From positions 16,182,001 through 16,246,000 of the forward strand of contig OX597820.1 in the NCBI GenBank assembly GCA_951406725.2: 64,000 nt of DNA, read 5' to 3'. A model generated the notes under the pieces. It did no database searches. It saw only the letters and a program-made list of their open reading frames with translations, and was not told where the DNA came from. Source of the stretch: Octopus vulgaris (taxonomy: Eukaryota). This document shows, piece by piece, positions 1,482 through 63,372 of this stretch. The first letter of the stretch is position 1. Each line of letters starts with the position of its first letter. Both the position numbers and the translations under genes were made by a program.

Positions 1482-1894
1482 TATACATACATATATATAC
1501 ATATATATATATATATATACATTATTATATAAGGTTAAAAAGTCTCTCTTGGGTGCTGCTGGTAGCATATAACCTCACTGCCTTGGATAAACTGCGGACA
1601 TCCTGTGAGATAAAATACATAAGACCCGTTAAAGAGTGAACGAAGCCAGGAGAGAACGGCCATCGATTTGTGTGCAAATGTGTTTCCTGAAAATCACTAT
1701 TAATTGGAAAGTATCTTGTGGTTTGAAAGGTCTAAGACAGTCGTCCTGAATCGTTTTTACCCTACTGGAGCCCTTTTCAATCTCTATTTCACTTTACTGG
1801 ACCCTCACAGATATTTGATGCTTTAAAAGTTTTGAGTTGTATTATTAAATATTATTAGATATTGTATCAAAAAAAAAACAAACCACAGACTGTC

Positions 1895-2044
1895 TAGGGG
1901 ACGCAACTCAACCTTTTTTACTCTCAAAAAAAATTTACCATAATTTTTTTTCCATTTTTTTGCTATTTTTTGGCTATAACTCTCTAAAAATGCTTTATAG
2001 TTATTTCCCTTACAAACCTGAGCAACGCCGGGCGATACTGCTAG
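1895..2044 (+). mobile_element. 3' end of a non-autonomous Helitron
   Basis: Hairpin cctgagcaacgccggg, then cgatactgCTAG|T; terminal ~65 bp match the reverse complement of 62975-63035; 5' boundary approximate. Confidence 0.7.
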
Positions 2045-2349
2045 TTAGCTATAATTACAATTAATTCGAGCTACTCTTGTTCATTAACCTAGTAACTATA
2101 GGCTTTTGTGTAACAGCCGGATCCCTGAATTCAAGTTCTAAGTTAATTGCAAAGATAACAGAGTTGCGGTTTATATGATTAATTTACCAGTAGTCAAAAA
2201 CAACGACGTCTTTAACTATCCGGTAACCTAATAAATAACATTGTGTAACACGATTTTTGTCCTCGGGTAACAACTGTCACTTCCTGTTTGCTTACCTCTG
2301 GAGAGTATGAAAAATGGCAGTTTCCTTCAAGCTTTGCTTTTGTTACATT

Positions 2350-2520
2350 TATTCAAACCCTAAATAATCCCTCTCAATACAAGACTATGATGCTCCTCCA
2401 CTACTCCCGCTCATGATCAGAGATGCATATATTGTCAGTCACTAAGGGACAAACTCAAGTGGTTATGGTCAAACCACTCACAAGCAAATCTGTGGTACTG
2501 AGCGGAATATTTGCTATAAC
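2350..2520. repeat. Diverged copy of the dispersed repeat at 32570-32985 and 33600-34018
   Basis: Shared tatgatgctc..ctact..gctcatgatcagagatgca..cactaagggac..ggttatggtcaaac. Confidence 0.75.
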
Positions 2521-2748
2521 GATGTTTCTTACTCGGCAACTCAACGCTGAATCTGTGTGAAATGCAGTGGAAAATAGGACAGTTTCAAAACGTTGATGTC
2601 CAGATCACAAAAGCAAATTTTGAATGGAACGGTAGTTATTTCCTTTGATTTCTAGACAGAACCAAATAGGAAATAACATTTACTGACCAAAGACGAGAAG
2701 AAAAAAACAGAAAAAAAAAAAGAAAATTTGCTATCGCATTTGATTTAG

Positions 2749-2810
<62 letters not shown>

Positions 2811-2816
<6 letters not shown>

Positions 2817-2883
2817 GAAGGAGCTTCTACAGGACTAGAACTGTTTCATTCAAAAGAAATCATCAGGAAGCTCCTTCTATAAA
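2811..2883 (-). ncRNA. Type I hammerhead ribozyme in a Penelope-like terminal fragment (fragment runs to ~2955)
   Basis: Minus strand: tttatagaaggagcttc-CTGATGA-t ttc tttt gaa t-GAAA-cag ttctagtc ctg-TA-gaagctccttctataaa; second copy of the family at 50627-50807. Confidence 0.8.
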
Positions 2884-2952
2884 ATAAATTAATTTACTCT
2901 GCTATGTATTGAGTACCTTATTGACTGTGGTTAACCCCGACTCAACCCGGGA

Positions 2953-3003
<51 letters not shown>

Positions 3004-3007
<4 letters not shown>

Positions 3008-3025
3008 CAGCAGTCCGAATCTTTG

Positions 3026-3063
<38 letters not shown>

Positions 3064-3086
3064 CAAAGATTCGGACTGCTGAAATG
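3004..3086. repeat. Perfect inverted repeat enclosing (TA)n
   Basis: atttcagcagtccgaatctttgtta / taacaaagattcggactgctgaaat on either side of a TA run. Confidence 0.9.
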
Positions 3087-3313
3087 ACTGAATCTATTGA
3101 AATGAATTGATAAGCTCACGTATAATATCCAAAGATACATCTTTTTTTTTCTGTGATGAAATTATACTCATGCCACATAAATGTAAATTTAATGTACAAA
3201 TTTGTAATTAAATTATTGAGTATTAATTGAAACGGCTGTATGAAGCGAAGACGACTGATTTCTTAATAATAAACAATTATTAACTACCTTATCTCCATTT
3301 TCTTCTTTTAAAT

Positions 3314-3385
<72 letters not shown>

Positions 3386-3531
3386 GACAATGATAAATCT
3401 CAGAGCGAGTTATAAACAGTAGCGGCAACTCATCGTGACGTATATTTGCCATTTGAATATGGCTGGGGCTACAAACTACAGTAGCATCCACCCTTAGGGG
3501 TTAGCCATATTCAAATGGCAAATATACGTCA
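3386..3531. mobile_element. Inverted-plus-direct fragment of the retrozyme-like family
   Basis: ~29-bp inverted repeat gtgacgtatatttgccatttgaatatggct / agccatattcaaatggcaaatatacgtcac; ggggctacaaactacagtagc..ggttagccat matches 50459-50517. Confidence 0.7.
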
Positions 3532-3932
3532 CTATATATATATGTATTTATATAAATTTAAATTCAAAATGAGGGTGTATATAAATTTAAATTTAAAACG
3601 AAGACGTTTGAAAAATAACCGCAAGTGTAATAGGTAGAACTAGATACAGATTTGCCCTCGTGCAGACGTCTCCGTATATAGTTCTGCAAATTATATTTGT
3701 ATAGACGGTCACACTGAGGATCTACGGACAGATTGTGTAAGTAAAAATTACGTAATATGTTAATAGTGAAACATGTATGTGAATAATCTATATTTTGTAT
3801 CTGTTCATTTGTCTTGCTCGCTTACGTTCTGGCGTTTGCTAAATTTTTCTTGAGAACATTTCTTAGTGGTAAGGCCATGGCGGATCTACTTCTAGCATAA
3901 GGGTTGTCCACATACTGGTCATCCCTCTCATT

Positions 3933-4347: not shown

Positions 4348-4400
4348 TATATCTACTATATATATATCATATATATGTGCGTCGCTTTAAAAGTATATAC

Positions 4401-4650
4401 TGTGAGCAAGAGCGAGTGGCTGTCATCTCTAGCCGGCGATTGTCCTGTACCGGCGAAAGAAATTACCCAGAAACCATTGGTGTACAGGTATCGCTACGGC
4501 TAGTAAGGGAGCAGTGGACTCCCTTGCTTACAGCTTGCGGACACATATCACGTGTCGGTAACCAGCTGGAAAAGATGTTTTCCTGGGGCTAAAAAGTAGT
4601 AACACTGTCCTACGTAGGACTGCCACGTTGCGTTGGCAAATAAACTTCAC
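4401..4650 (+). ncRNA. Highly structured retrozyme-like element with degenerate hammerhead
   Basis: Long hairpin 4430-4502 capped by cctgta-CCGGCGA..GAAA-cca t tgg-TG-tacagg; then hairpins aagggag/ctccctt, gacac/gtgtc, gaaaa/ttttc and ggggcta..agtaacac, in the same order as in 50302-50480. Confidence 0.7.
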
Positions 4651-4657
4651 TATATAT

Positions 4658-9539: not shown

Positions 9540-9578
9540 CTTTTCTGCTGAAGAGTTTAGGCTCGAAACGTAAAAGAC
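9540..9578 (+). ncRNA. Minimal hammerhead motif in a Penelope-like end (9480-9660)
   Basis: CTGAAGA-gtttaggctc-GAAA-cg-TA-aaaga; helix I imperfect; related to 40611-40649 and ~13090-13115. Confidence 0.55.
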
Positions 9579-19444: not shown

Positions 19445-20345
19445 ACTTTGAGTTCTGAGTTCAAATGCTGCCGGGGTCGACTTTGCCTTTCATCTTTTCG
19501 GGGTTGAATACTGGGGTCGGTGTAATCTACTTTAAGGAGGCGAGCTGGCAGATTCTTTAGCGCGCCGAACAAAATGCTTAGCTGCATTTCGTCCGTCTTT
19601 ACGTTCTGAGTTCAAATTGCGCCGAGGTCGACTTTGCCTTTCATCTTTTCAGGGTCGATTAAATTAGTACCAGTTGAGTACTGGGGTAGATGTAATCGAT
19701 TTACACCCTCCTCCGAACTTGCTGGCCTTGTGCCAAAATTTGAAATCATTATTTAATTTGACCTTAAAGCGGCGATCTGGCAGAATCGTTAGCACGCTGG
19801 ATGAAATGCTTAACGGTATTTCGTCTGCCGCTACGTCCTGAGTTCAAATTCCGCCGAGGTCGACTTTGCCTTTCATCCTTTCGGGGTCGATAAATTAAGT
19901 ACCAGTTACGCACTGGGGTCGATGTAATCGTCTTAATCCGTTTGTCTGTCCTTGTTTGTCCCCTCTGTGTTTAGCCCCTTGTGGGTAGTAAAGAAATAGG
20001 TATTTCGTCTGCCGCTACGTTCTGAGTTCAAATTCCGCCGAGGTCGACTTTGCCTTTCACCCTTTCGGGGTCGATAAATTGAGTACCAGTTGCGTACTGG
20101 GGTCGATGTAGTCGAATTAATCCGTTTGTTTGTCCTTGTTTGTCCTCTCTGTGTTTAACCCCTTGTGGGTAGTAAAGAAATAGTAACATTTCGTCTGCCG
20201 CTACGTCCTGAGTTCAAATTCCACCAAGATCGACTGTGCCTTTCATCCTTTCGGAGTCGATAATTTAGGTACCAGTTGCGTACTGGGGTCGGTGTAATCG
20301 ACTAGTCCCCTCCCCACAAATTTCAGCCCTTTTGCCTCAAGTAGA
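19445..20345 (+). mobile_element. Family A SINE cluster with a ~180-bp tandem unit (3 units from 19770)
   Basis: Repeated tttcgtctgccgctacg..gtcgactttgcc..ccccttgtgggtagtaaagaaatag. Confidence 0.9.
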
Positions 20346-21122: not shown

Positions 21123-22626
21123 AGGTATATATCAGGTCGGGTGTCGATGAAGTATCGACCTCATTATCTCGTCACGGTTTATTTATTAGCGCTAAATAAT
21201 GCATAGGCGGGAAGCAATTTAGCCCGAAGTTTACGGATATTTGCACGAAAACAAACAAAAAAGGGAAAATAGTCTAACAAATTCACTATTCATATTTGGA
21301 GTGGTTTTTGGGGGTGTGGGTGGGGTATGGCTTTAAACTGCATTTCGTAGTGGTGCCCGGTTTGGGAGTCCCGAGGTTTTGGGGAGTGTAGAACCCCACC
21401 TTAACAACTATTGTTCCCAGGACTACACTGACAAGGCGTAGCAGCGTCTGACAGGATCCCAGCTATGGGTTAATTAGCATTTCCGGAAACTGCCACCGAA
21501 AGATTACTCACTGACACCCTAAAGGACTCAGGATACTGAGACCCTTCATATCTTTAGCTGATTGTCTTAGAGAAAGCAGCTCCGCAGAAGTTCTGCTTTC
21601 TGATACCTGTTGGGATCAAGGTCCCTGTTGCACAAGATTCGTTCAAGTTTCAAAGACGAGAAAGTGGGACTAGCTCCGCTTAAACTGTCTTCTATAATAA
21701 TTAACCCTTGCTACATTGTGGGGTAATTTATTAAGAGTTTAAACAAAGCTAAGGGAGAAAATAGAAAATCCAGAGGAAGGGACCCTAAGGTAAGTATGTA
21801 TGGTTACATTTAACCAATATCTGGCATCCCTTGCAGCTTCATGAATGCTGGGAACATATTGACTTGACTTTCCTTTCTGGCATATCCACGAGTGGAGAGG
21901 TGGTTGATGTACTTTGAGCTGGGTACTCGCTTCAGGAAACAGCCCAAGCGTTGAATTGGTTGAATTACTGTCTCTAAAATACTGCTCGGTCATGGAACGA
22001 ATTGAACTCGTTCTGCGAGGTATCACTGTATTAGTGACAGAGGCAGCATTAATACCGCGAGGTACTATTTATTCCCACTTAAATGTGGATGTCTTGTTAG
22101 AACAAACTATACTGTGGTAGATGCCTTGAGAGAAACTCTCATATAGGCTTTTGATGCAAAACGCACTCTTGTTTATATTGTTAGTGGGGAGATAAATTCC
22201 CGCCGCCTCCAGCGCTGAGATACCAGATCACATGATTTCGACCTTTCTTGGTCTTGTTCATGAAGGGTCGCTCGACCACTAGAGATAGCCTTGTAAACTG
22301 TTTTTAACATTTTCTTATTATTATCAAAGAATGTATATATGTATTGTAATATTTTGTCTTTCATATATATGTGTCTGTGTTTGTCCCTCTAGCATTGCTT
22401 GACAACTGATGCTGGTGTGTTTACGTCCCAGTCACTTAGCGGTTCGGCAAAAGAGACCGATAGAATAAGTACTGGGCTTACAAAGAATAAGTCCCGGGGT
22501 CGATTTGCTCGACTAAAGGCGGTGCTCCGGCATGGCCACAGTCAAATGACTGAAACAAGTAAAAGAGTAAAAAGAGTAAAGAGGTACTCGTGCGGTACCT
22601 TACAACTTCACTTTGTCATATATATG

Positions 22627-43699: not shown

Positions 43700-44830
43700 T
43701 TCTTTCTACTAAAAGCACAAGGTCTGAAATTTAGTGGAAGGGGCTAACCGATGACATCCATCCCAGTGCTTGACTGGTACTTTATTTTATCGACCCCAAA
43801 AGGATGAAAGTCAAAGTCGACCATGAATGAATTTGAACTCAGAACGTAAAGACGGATGAAATACTTATTTCTTTACTATCCAAAAGGGGCTAAACACAGA
43901 GGGGACAAACAGGGGCAGACAAAGGATTAAGTCGATTACATCGACCCCAGTGCGTAACTGGTACTTAATTTATCGGCCCCGAAAAGATTCCGACCTCGGC
44001 GGAATTTGAACTCAGAATGTAACGGCAGACGAAATACCTATTTCTTTACTACCCACATGGGGCTAAACACAGAGAGGACAAACAAGGACAGACAAACGGA
44101 TTAAGTCAATTATAACGACCCCAGTGTGTAACTGGTACTTATTTAATCGACCCCCGAAAGGATGAAAGGCCAGTCGACCTCGGCGGAATTTGAACTCAGA
44201 ATGTAACGGCAGACGAAATACCTATTTCTTTACTACCCACTAGGAGTTAAACACAGAGAGGACAAACAAGGACAGACAAACGGATTAAGTCAATTATAAC
44301 AACCCCAGTGTGTAACTGGTACTTATTTAATCGACCTTCGAAAGGATGAAAGGCAAAGTCGACCTCGGCGGAATTTGAACTCAGAACGTAACGGCAGACG
44401 AAATACTTATTTCTTTACTACCCACAAGGGGCTAAACACAGAGAGGACAAACAAGGACAGACAAACGGATTAAGTCAATTATAACGACCCCAGTGTGTAA
44501 CTGGTACTTATTTAATCGACCTCCGAAAGGATGAAAGGCAAAGTCGACCTCGGCGGAATTTGAACTCAGAACGTAACGGCAGACGAAATACTTATTTCTT
44601 TACTACCCACAAGGGGCTAAACACAGAGAGGACAAACAAGGACAGACAAACGGATTAAGTCAATTATAACGACCCCAGTGTGTAACTGGTACTTATTTAA
44701 TCGACCCCGAAAGGATGAAAGGCAAAGTCGACCTCGGCGGGATTTGAACTCAGAACGTAACGACAGACGAAATACCGCCAAGCATTTCGTCCTGCGTGCT
44801 AACAGTTCAGCTAGCTAGTTCGCCGCCTTG
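43700..44830 (-). repeat. Tandem array of about six ~180-bp units derived from the family A SINE
   Basis: gacctcggcgg..gaactcagaa recurs at ~43993, 44177, 44361, 44546, 44730. Confidence 0.93.
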
Positions 44831-50084: not shown

Positions 50085-50577
50085 AAGTTTTTCTTATGGC
50101 GTCTGCCACTGATGTCGAAAAACGAACAGTAAGCATAATTAAATCTCAGAATGAGATTGAAACAGTAATCGCTCGATAATGTAAAGTATAGAAGCCATCT
50201 TATCACGGCTAACCACATGCTTACTGTTCGTTTTTCGACATCAGTGGCAGACGCCATTAGAAAAAACTTATATATGTTTGCAAAGAGGCCTTCACTTTCA
50301 TCGCGACCTGGTGGTTACCGCCCGTTGACGAGGGACAACAATCCCGAAACTAGTTCGAGCGTATCACTCAGGCTTGCGAGGAAGGGATGACCTCCCTTTG
50401 CAAATACTCCAAGGACACTGATATTGTGTCTAAAGCCAGCTAGAGACGAAGATCTCTTGGGGCTATAAAGCTACAGTAACACCCCCTCCCCAATGTGGTT
50501 AGCCATGATAAGATGGCTTCTATACTTTACATTATCGAGCGATTACTGTTTCAATCTCATTCTGAGATTTAATTATG

Positions 50578-50578
<1 letters not shown>
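50085..50578 (+). mobile_element. Retrozyme-like element: 358-nt circularly permuted monomer (50217-50574) plus an inverted junction-spanning fragment
   Basis: Reverse complement of 50085-50218 equals 50493-50578 joined to 50219-50269; hammerhead at 50302-50378. Confidence 0.75.
50302..50378 (+). ncRNA. Type I hammerhead in a long helix I (C3U variant)
   Basis: cgcgacctggtggttaccgcccg-TTGACGA-ggga caacaa tccc-GAAA-ctag-TT-cgagcgtatcactcaggcttgcg. Confidence 0.72.
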
Positions 50579-50626
<48 letters not shown>

Positions 50627-50629
<3 letters not shown>

Positions 50630-50806
50630 TATATAGAAGGAGCTTCTACAGGACTAGAACTGTTTCATTCAAGAGAAATCTTCAGGAAATTTCTCTTGAA
50701 ACAGTTCTAGTCCTGTAGAAGCTCCTTCTATATAATAAATTAATGTTACTCTGCTATGTATTGAGTACCTTATTTACTGTGGTTAACCCCGAATCAACCC
50801 GGGACC

Positions 50807-53817: not shown

Positions 53818-54447
53818 AGAAAATTGCACTACTAGGCACTGCACACATCCTACGCAGAACACTTTCCATACAATAACCATCAGAGCATCACAACAAATCA
53901 CAGCACATACCCAAGGCACACAGAGCTGCGCTCGGTAGTGAAGTGAAAGCACACTATAAAAATAAAACTACTGAATAATAATAATAATAATTCTTTCTAT
54001 TTAGGGCTATCGACCCCAGTTTTTAACTGCTACTTCATTTATCGACTCCGAAAGGATGAAAAGCAAAGTCGACCTCGGCGGAATTTGAACTCAGAACGTA
54101 ATGACGCACTTTGCCCTGTGTGCTAACCATTCTGCCAGCTCACCGCCTCAAAAATAGTTATAATAAAATTTCTTTTGTTAGCTACAGTGGCATAGATGAG
54201 AGAGACATCACAAGAACAAATGACAGGTATAGCAGTATGGTTAACAAACTCGCTTTGCAGCCACCTGTTTTGGAAATCAGTACTACTTGTGCTGCACCTT
54301 GGGCAAGTGTCTTCTACTATACCCCCAGGAAAACTAATGTCTTGTGAGTGAATTTGGTTGATGGAAACTGTGTGGAAGCCGTTGTACATATGTGTGCGTG
54401 CGTGCGAGTGTGTGTTTATGTGTTTGTGTGCGAGTGTGTATGTACAT

Positions 54448-55487
54448 GTTCGGCAAAAGGAACCGACAGTCGGACTATATTATGCCCCATAGAGGCCCTA
54501 AGCACATGAAAATTTCCGTGACCGTATAGCAATGTAATTCAAAATATAAACAATAACCCATAAAGTTTTTATAAAGTGTGCATGTGTATGCAGTTGCGCT
54601 GTTCGGCAAAAGGGACCCGACAGTCGAGGCTATATTATGCCCCATAGAGGCCTTACGCACTTTAAAATTTCTATGACCTCATATCAATGTAATTCAAAAT
54701 ATAAACAATAACCCATAAAGTTTTTATAAAGTGTGCATGTGTATGCAGTTGCGCTGTTCGGCAAAAGGGACCCGACAGTCGAGGCTATATTATGCCCCAT
54801 AGAGGCCTTACGCACTTTAAAATTTCTATGACCTCATATCAATGTAATTCAAAATATAAACAATAACCCATAAAGTTTTTATAAAGTGTGCATGTGTATG
54901 CAGTTGCGCTGTTCGGCAAAAGGGACCCGACAGTCGAGGCTATATTATGCCCCATAGAGGCCTTACGCACTTGAAAATTTCTATGACCTCATATCAATGT
55001 AATTCAAAATATAAACAATAACCCATAAAGTTTTTATAAAGTGTGCATGTGTATGCAGTTGCGCTGTTCGGCAAAAGGGACCCGACAGTCGAGGCTATAT
55101 TATGCCCCATAGAGGCCTTACGCACTTTAAAATTTCTATGACCTCATATCAATGTAATTCAAAATATAAACAATAACCCATAAAGTTTTTATAAAGTGTG
55201 CATGTGTATGCAGTTGCGCTGTTCGGCAAAAGGGACCCGACAGTCGAGGCTATATTATGCCCCATAGAGGCCTTACGCACTTTAAAATTTCTATGACCTC
55301 ATATCAATGTAATTCAAAATATAAACAATAACCCATAAAGTTTTTATAAAGTGTGCATGTGTATGCAGTTGCGCTGTTCGGCAAAAGGGACCCGACAGTC
55401 GGGGCTATATTATGCCCCATAGAGGCTTTACGCACTTTAAAATTTCTATGACTTCATATCAATGTAATTCAAGCCCATAAAGTTTTT
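54448..55487. repeat. 155-bp tandem satellite, ~6.7 copies
   Basis: gttcggcaaaagg starts at 54448, 54601, 54756, 54911, 55066, 55221, 55376. Confidence 0.97.
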
Positions 55488-62974: not shown

Positions 62975-63372
62975 CTAGCAGTATCGCCCGGCGTTTCTCG
63001 GGTTTGTAAGGGAAATAACTATATAAGCATTTTTAGTGATGTAAAGTATAATAGCCATCTCAATATGGCTAACCACAAAGGGGTGTGTGTTTTACTGTAG
63101 CTTTTTACGTTCTGAGATTTAATAATAAATTTTTAGAGACTTACTTCCCTTATATATGCCAAAAATGCATTAAAAATAGGAAAAATTGATGGTAACTTTT
63201 TTTTAAATCGTAGACTCATCGTAGACGCGCGCTAATAGCCAGACGGGCTCGATATGAATCACGACTATAAGATACCCGGTTTTGGTTAAACTGCACCGCA
63301 AAATGTGGGAGTAGTTAGGAATCTAAATCGTAGGAGACAGACAGCACACAACCTCTCTTTTATATATAAAGA
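62975..63372 (-). mobile_element. Complete non-autonomous Helitron, 398 bp
   Basis: Minus strand A|TCtttatatataaaa...cccgagaaacgccggg-cgatactg-CTAG|T: 5' TC, 3' hairpin plus CTAG, AT target, no TSD. Confidence 0.85.

Follow-up and report, generated by a model that had tools for sequence, protein, structure and literature searches.

A covarying, predicted RNA fold kept by at least seven families of hammerhead retrozyme-like repeats in the genome of Octopus vulgaris

Penelope-like elements have been named as the likely movers of metazoan retrozymes, without a mechanism (Cervera and de la Pena 2020, PMC7229834; Li, Clavereau and Pollet 2026, bioRxiv 10.64898/2026.07.22.740005; both in part, which here and below limits a statement to the sections of the source that were available). 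Both papers leave open which enzyme moves animal retrozymes and how it recognises them. One criterion applied to a metazoan non-LTR retrozyme is its expression as linear and circular monomer RNA (PMC7229834, in part). For a Poseidon enzyme, it has been shown in vitro that copying begins within the RNA, at two positions on the 3′ side of the hammerhead; the stretch between them is the tail, the RNA needed lies in that region, and cleavage by the hammerhead is unnecessary for priming (Frangieh 2024, PMC11167929). Partial tandems, inverted 5′-truncated copies and the tail are marks of Penelope-like elements (Craig 2021, PMC8557442, in part). The fold described here bears on which RNA feature sets the two internal start sites of Penelope-like enzymes.

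We analysed a window of 64,000 nucleotides from Octopus vulgaris (contig OX597820.1, positions 16,182,001 to 16,246,000 of the forward strand), part of a genome of 2.8 Gb that is rich in microsatellites. The stretch 4376-4654 (plus strand) of this window is a dead, 5′-truncated and decayed copy of a high-copy repeat, termed family A, with a unit of 352 nucleotides. Tracts of (TG)n/(TA)n and of (TA)/(CA)n flank the copy, which is ~92% identical to the column majority of family A, from which it differs by 22 substitutions and one deleted base. Within 4430-4502, the core is surrounded by an outer helix, an internal loop and helix I of the hammerhead, in which 4444-4449 pair with 4483-4488. The core remnant itself (4450-4482) is predicted to be inactive, since comparison with the family A majority reveals the change of A6 to G (4453), the loss of a helix II base near 4458 and the replacement of the C at the cleavage site by G (4482).

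A second, young copy of a related family, B, is located at 50217-50579 (plus strand; unit 357 nucleotides). Its hammerhead matches the Rfam model HH9 at 50307-50377 with the cut site after 50355, a promoter-like motif is found at 50240 and the predicted start at 50300. Two 3′ sites lie near 50535 and near 50579, the latter running into (TA)n, and an inverted 5′-truncated family B piece (50132-50218, minus strand) adjoins the main copy. As described in an earlier note on this DNA, the named modules are present in the same order at 4430-4605 and 50300-50483. The note's summary that structure was conserved here and sequence was not holds for the fold and is overstated for the sequence, which is partly kept: the two family majorities are 59% identical, and local alignment of the two stretches scores 130 as compared with a maximum of 96 in 1000 shuffles. 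By part, 42/76 columns agree in the hammerhead and outer helix, 59/94 in the next four helices and 30/50 in the last two. The helix I sequences do differ, as stated; pairing in both copies was claimed as well, and here B contains a C-A mismatch that leaves 5/6 pairs. The internal loop and the helix next to helix I fall within the HH9 model. The exchange of gaaaa/ttttc for gaga/tctc is indeed compensatory, with 4/6 pairs changed on both sides. The stem gacac/gtgtc is unchanged between A and B and therefore uninformative alone; in family H it is replaced by a different pairing stem.

Further copies in the window comprise a distant family H copy at 22030-22289 (minus strand), a family E-type 3′ fragment with a short inverted piece at 3435-3532 (plus strand) and a family B-type 3′ fragment at 63041-63107 (minus strand). 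Another repeat, which contains a long and perfect fold-back and has (TA)n at its flanks, comes immediately after the B copy (50636-50790) and recurs at 2817-2955. Hammerhead-like cores of other repeats were seen at 9548(+), 35639(+), 40643(-), 41572(-), 42471(-), 47540(-) and 56798(-), and a covariance model of the unit's head (R1, see below) gave zero matches at these seven cores. Tandem arrays occupy 54447-55472 (period 155, 6.6 copies, 97%) as well as 19815-20301 and 43762-44776 (period 184-185). A 331-codon open frame at 394-1390 resembles a mariner-type transposase.

Genome-wide, the repeat belongs to a superfamily of at least seven families (A, B, C, E, F, G and H; the count is a lower bound) with units of 352-362 nucleotides and pairwise identities of 40-85%. 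A first look with seven family queries returned 1623 to 3223 candidates per query, the best 40 of which were scored each time. Among these, family A (1623 candidates) comprised full-length matches that are 80-87% identical, family B (2048 candidates) matches that are 96-99% identical, and family H (3223 candidates) 29 copies with 86.5% identity to their majority and 40-48% identity to the other families. Each family is represented by its best-scoring copies and not by a random draw (A 31, B 41, C 22, E 33, F 30, G 27 and H 29); three 'B2' copies were left out as too few, and the family C unit, in which the rod is present, was built at a depth of at least 12. Families C, E and F were revealed by a pattern for the common 3′ part, which yielded 754 exact matches as compared with 0 for the reversed control, and family G was found beside a Penelope-like locus. 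Family H was detected by a head-only covariance model, which was built from 22 real copies (A, B, C, E, F and G) and covers the 3′ part without the ribozyme. In the window this model matched 22061-22205 on the minus strand (E 4e-4), with the hammerhead of the new family located upstream at the expected distance. The model also matched a family I in 3/3 loci (33-72 bits), so that, contrary to the refuting condition set in the earlier note, a covariance model did find further homologues, namely the heads of H and I. Family I (L284, L286, L294, L309) is an old eighth family with the same head. Another hammerhead family, the ninth, is family J (L285, L287, L289, L290, L297, L300, L312, L314), which has a U3-A8 core in which position 4 is often C, and a helix III that forms a palindrome of 10 nt; no head-model match was obtained in 6/6 of its loci, though the LINE described below inserts there as well. 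A 3.4-kb segmental tandem duplication (L091, G000:C3:35432500-35440500) holds pieces of family E. The reading of this locus as a full element with two terminal repeats, suggested by matches 3.4 kb apart, was dropped, as it is a segmental duplication without an ORF.

The core boxes of a type I hammerhead are present in the majorities of 7/7 families. When compared to HH9, the B copy covers all 77 positions with 31.2 bits, which is below the gathering score of 52 (E 4e-6 over 362 bases); the A copy in the window matched no Rfam family, and no Rfam match beyond HH9 was found for the repeat units. Most intact copies of families A and E carry C in place of U4, families G and H a U3-A8 pair, and in families A, C, E and F the basal pair of helix II is mismatched. 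Both core variants are already in print (PMC3088659 and PMC4209133, in part), and the C in place of U4, like the mismatch in helix II, is expected to lower cleavage (PMC3088659, in part). Helix III is palindromic or nearly so with a different sequence between families, and a palindrome at this position is a mark of dimer cleavage (PMC4209133, in part). A common ORF of at least 150 aa was not found in 60 loci of A and B, nor an RT or GIY-YIG match inside the units. The head-to-tail periods of 352-362 nucleotides are inside the 150-450 bp range of non-LTR retrozymes. Given the hammerhead, the period and the lack of a coding frame, the units are likely non-LTR retrozymes, for which cleavage and expression are predicted from sequence.

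The termini of the inserted copies show a distinct asymmetry. After removal of duplicate pieces from overlapping loci, 229/269 pieces have their 3′ end in two intervals that make up 20% of the unit: counted from the cut site, +160-186 (site 1) holds 106/269 ends and +198-240 (site 2) 123/269, with modes 38-59 nucleotides apart. The 5′ ends scatter, with 67/269 in the same two intervals. The queries covered the hammerhead up to about P9 and thereby forced the main pieces to reach site 1, which explains neither the stop there nor site 2. Pieces longer than one unit are frequent (96/269; the longest of 1015 nucleotides, i.e. at most ~2.9 units), an inverted piece is found in 65/185 loci, and a (TA)3 run stands at the 3′ end of 120/275 pieces. 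The two 3′ ends with a tail between them and the scattered 5′ ends constitute the 'tail' signature of Penelope, and the partial tandems, the inverted copies and the TA-rich ends are further marks of Penelope-type mobilisation. An ORF with RT and GIY-YIG, as expected of an autonomous Penelope-like element, was not found in the units, and because they have no ORF we do not file them as such; the units insert like a Penelope-like element, yet they are not one.

Whole-unit folds of the family majorities place the hammerhead at an end and contain, in addition, an irregular ~55-bp rod and a head with several branches. The rod, the hairpins P5, P7, P9 and P13 and an enclosing helix are predicted in 7/7 family majorities, and P6, P8 and P11 in 6/7, 4/7 and 3/7 of the family minimum-energy folds, respectively, as compared with a helix at the corresponding positions in 2-23% of 56 shuffled units. 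The real copies in the window likewise fold better than shuffled sequence, with z-scores of -2.51 (A) and -4.34 (B). In the window copy, the head contains P5 (4539-4556), P6 (4559-4563 with 4587-4591), P7 (4568-4583) and, past position 4605, the two hairpins P8 (4607-4620) and P9 (4621-4638); complete units add the enclosing helix and further hairpins. The enclosing helix joins a conserved motif to the tail between the two 3′ sites in 7/7 families. Its 5′ arm is located at 4596-4604 of the window copy, and the 3′ arm, being placed in the tail, is missing there: the copy ends at site 1 (4648-4654, ~+172 from the cut site) and continues into a TA repeat. Site 1 is found immediately 3′ of P9 and falls within the junction that the enclosing helix closes. 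The family-level fold is real and larger than first described. Since the 3′-end map agrees with the Poseidon start sites and with the insertion marks of Penelope-like elements, we read the head as a likely docking and start site, to which, by analogy, the enzyme would bind. On balance, we consider it probable that 4376-4654 is a broken copy of a non-LTR retrozyme, that at least seven families keep its fold and that the head is likely a docking and start site for a Penelope-type RT provided by another element.

The hairpin aagggag/ctccctt (P4, 4505-4525), which had been taken as a fixed part of the fold, turned out to be an alternative to the rod. Its probability is 1.0 in the fold of 4429-4606 and 0.0 in that of the whole copy 4376-4654, because its strands pair with 4400-4410, the 5′ arm of the predicted long rod, which pairs with ~4523-4533 and displaces the hairpin. 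The P4/rod alternative of family B behaves as in A; in families G and H no P4 forms even without the rod arm, i.e. it is absent in 2/7 families. A transcript that begins at the insertion site of the LINE lacks the rod arm, and P4 folds in such a transcript of A, B, C, E and F with a probability of 0.64-1.0. The picture given in the earlier note can thereby be reconciled, as nascent RNA, with the rod, as cut monomer or circle.

Covariation was tested against a permutation null, using the pairs of one family at a time and aligning the other families to it by sequence alone; family C was left out, the comparisons are not independent, and the alignments misplace G and H by 1-3 columns. In the head, pair-keeping changes on both sides beat the permutation null (p<0.05) in 13/15 comparisons. 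In the rod, register-level covariation is weak, with p<0.05 in 3/15 comparisons. Starting from A, the observed changes on both sides outnumber those of the null in B (12 vs 4.2), E (12 vs 5.3), F (10 vs 1.9) and G (17 vs 6.0; each p 0.001), and the null was not beaten in the comparison of A with H (7 vs 5.0, p 0.22). In the 22 real copies, 86.5% of cells pair as compared with 33-50% when partners are slid, and 47 cells change both sides; two of five shuffle measures were not exceeded in these copies, namely 11 pairs vs 9.2 (111/500) and 28 pair types vs 31.2 (493/500). RNAalifold kept only 12 pairs on the real copies, located in P6, P7 and P9, and P6 and P7 (4559-4591) are the best covarying part. 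A plain contrast of kept with broken pairs between and within families was null (odds ratio 1.0).

The distribution of these changes bears on what the fold is kept for. Whole-unit majorities fold strongly as circles (z-scores of -3.7 to -8.1, 25 shuffles each), the rod puts both cut ends side by side in 7/7 families, and coral retrozymes have been described with self-paired circles (PMC7229834, in part). These observations would fit a fold kept for an RNA circle, for its stability, for end-joining by a host ligase or to hold the hammerhead foldable or blocked, with the start of the enzyme set by local sequence or distance and not by the shape of the head. However, the strongest covariation is found in the head, at both 3′ ends, and not in the rod, and the enclosing helix links the conserved motif to the tail between the sites in 7/7 families; we therefore regard this explanation as unlikely. 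Selection of the hairpins as DNA, be it as cruciforms or as protein sites for an endonuclease or promoter factors, is in our view very improbable: the promoter-like motif overlaps the 5′ arm of P13, and the Drosophila Penelope endonuclease needs tail DNA (as cited in Frangieh 2024, PMC11167929), whereas P5 and P7 retain G-U pairs on the ribozyme strand (at single pairs, in 6 and 4 copies, respectively), and the long-range rod and the enclosing helix are single-strand folds.

Within families the picture is different. The non-CpG substitution rates at paired and unpaired sites of the old families A, F and H are equal (0.088/0.083, 0.088/0.097 and 0.123/0.127, respectively), and hence selection acted on the source elements, between bursts, and not on the window locus. 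Genomic copies such as 4376-4654 decay neutrally. The earlier note's proposal of selection on an RNA fold extending beyond the ribozyme is accordingly upheld across families by the compensatory changes, and it does not apply to the window locus with its neutral decay and core lesions. Many contigs match 4552-4595 alone, the sequence of P6/P7 being the most widely common part. These contigs stem from runs not recorded as RNA, and a family B joint going back 358 nucleotides is equally explained by a DNA tandem. The wide occurrence of P6/P7 could point to a head that is a second ribozyme or a non-coding RNA adopted by the host and selected at the window locus. We give this the least credence of all explanations considered, as HH9 was the only Rfam match, substitution rates inside families are the same at paired as at unpaired sites and the window copy is truncated and damaged. 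Readings as box H/ACA RNA, box C/D RNA or second ribozyme were dropped without Rfam support. Of the two functions suggested in the earlier note, an RT-recruitment signal fits the 3′-end map, and a second catalytic motif is not supported, HH9 being the sole Rfam match.

If the enzyme is provided by another element, as we prefer to think, a partner may be encoded in the same genome. In a GIY-YIG search the best 150 of 6136 candidates were scored, and 43 Penelope-like loci drawn from the best matches were examined with the head model, one locus (L120) being left out as a non-Penelope GIY-YIG gene. The model matched only separate insertions in these 43 loci, and no autonomous element sharing the 3′ end of the units was found among them. 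In addition, the best 150 of 56078 candidates of an RVT_1 search were scored. A young Penelope-like element (L133:81-3781) contains overlapping frames of 479 aa and then 781 aa (RT and GIY-YIG), has many near-identical copies and a short terminal repeat and carries a U3-A8 minimal hammerhead near its 3′ end. This 781-aa RT/GIY-YIG element was rejected as the partner, its 3′ end and hammerhead being unlike those of the unit.

Five family C loci share an upstream sequence that is the 3′ end of a LINE (RVT_1, zf-RVT and a weak endonuclease match). A copy at L304:1693-6533 (minus strand) encodes APE-like, RT and zf-RVT domains; target duplications are ~9-17 nucleotides long, LINE copies are sometimes in tandem, and copies in units were also seen at L273, L275, L305, L307, L308, L309, L312 and L314. 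In a survey of LINE ends, which comprised the best 30 of 802 candidates including the five starting loci and was sorted by eye, 22/30 ends were directly followed by unit sequence; in 3/30 a short piece of the target came next and then the start of another LINE, whereas 5/30 had no intact end. The units behind these ends belong to five families: C, F, G-like and the new I and J. With 22/25 intact LINE 3′ ends directly adjoining unit sequence, one could suppose that the units are moved by a LINE, e.g. this Tx1-like one inside them, and that the head is a LINE-type 3′ recognition signal. In 10 loci, however, unit sequence and the duplicated target are also found 5′ of the LINE, which means that the LINE inserts into the unit, and the ends of the units, two sites located in TA repeats and accompanied by inverted pieces, are not at the LINE target; mobilisation by a LINE therefore appears improbable to a high degree, if slightly less so than selection as DNA. 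The insertion site is the 5′ foot of the outer helix, which corresponds to 4425 in the window copy, where the equivalent of the LINE target and predicted transcription start (4425-4434) is empty. The LINE-unit chimeras, considered as a natural test of a head carrying foreign sequence, were discarded for this use as they are target-specific LINE insertions.

The distance of the insertion site from a promoter-like motif is reminiscent of snRNA genes. In 23/25 U2 loci the motif ATYAGY begins 57-61 nucleotides before +1, and the remaining 2/25 carry a related LINE end there. A relative of the LINE sits at the start of U2 genes (L326, L333). In the units of A, B, C, E and F, ATYAGY occurs once, 58-59 nucleotides before the LINE site; it is found at 59 in family I and at 64 in one of two loci of family J, and families G and H have no exact hexamer but a degenerate form. 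A U2-like motif at the U2 distance is hence seen in 5/7 families and family I, the motif being short (5-6 letters). The spacing relative to U2 genes points to a possible snRNA-type promoter in the units. The window A copy is devoid of the motif, expected near 4367, because the copy starts 9 nucleotides too late. The motif that follows P6 was considered as a TATA box, and this reading was abandoned because the motif is altered in A, E, G and H.

Based on our preferred reading, with a Penelope-type enzyme from another element acting on the head, we propose the following cycle, of which transcription, cleavage, circles, protein binding and the identity of the enzyme are deduced from the features above. 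A source locus longer than one unit would be transcribed from the snRNA-type promoter, starting 56-60 nucleotides before the cut site, and the nascent RNA would fold into the hammerhead and the P4 hairpin. Cutting at two successive hammerheads would release a monomer, likely by dimer cleavage because helix III is palindromic. The ends of the monomer would pair into the rod and may be ligated to a circle. A Penelope-type enzyme would then nick TA-rich DNA and begin copying at site 1, inside the enclosing-helix junction, or at site 2, 38-59 nucleotides further on; copying across the cut site would generate 5′-truncated, more-than-unit and inverted inserts. A more far-reaching version, which we put forward tentatively and do not expect to hold in full, is that of a two-state RNA that passes from the nascent form with hammerhead and P4 to the rod-closed circle, the head of which binds a telomerase-related Penelope RT and sets both starts, with the LINE parasitising the snRNA-type start. 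If this two-state reading is true, the head would be the first domain for template recognition to be defined in any retrozyme or Penelope-like element. The seven families, as natural variants that share one predicted fold and have their 3′ ends mapped, provide ready-made constructs together with compensatory pairs.

Compared to the known systems, the units resemble metazoan non-LTR retrozymes in the type I hammerhead, the protein-free unit, the dispersed monomers, the short tandems and the predicted self-paired circle (PMC7229834; bioRxiv 10.64898/2026.07.22.740005; both in part), and mussel retrozymes of 350-390 bp in unit size. They differ from metazoan retrozymes in the shortness of the octopus tandems, which reach at most ~2.9 units, and in being known here from sequence alone; a Penelope pLTR relative was not detected. 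A cross-family fold, a map of where the insertions end and any cephalopod are absent from the available sections of the papers on metazoan retrozymes (for PMC7229834, octopus and cephalopod have 0 mentions in its main text), and in the literature, apart from Lunse 2017 and supplements, we found no report of a fold common to retrozyme families or of cephalopod retrozymes. With Poseidon PAc and other EN+ Penelope-like elements, the units share a pair of 3′ ends that lie beyond the hammerhead and are separated by the tail, AT-rich targets, partial tandems, inverted 5′-truncated copies, a palindromic helix III and, in G and H, the U3-A8 core variant (PMC11167929; PMC8557442; PMC4209133; in part). 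In PAc, however, the start region is inside the ORF, ~85-92 nucleotides after the cut, whereas in the units it is non-coding, 170-237 nucleotides after the cut and part of a multi-helix junction. The newt satellite 2 is a hammerhead repeat with a reported internal snRNA-type promoter (PMC2220036, in part and second-hand), like the one proposed for the units; in the octopus, the promoter is suggested by motif spacing relative to U2 genes and the copies are dispersed. Likewise, Tx1-clade LINEs (Tx1L in Tx1D, Keno in U2, Tx1-Mar) combine APE, RT and zf-RVT, use one site in a repeat and duplicate their target (PMC4494074, in part). Here, the target is a hammerhead repeat superfamily, and the placement in the clade is by likeness and not by a tree. 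Taken together, the kind of repeat is already known, and what is new is an architecture that covaries among at least seven families and on which both putative start sites have been located.
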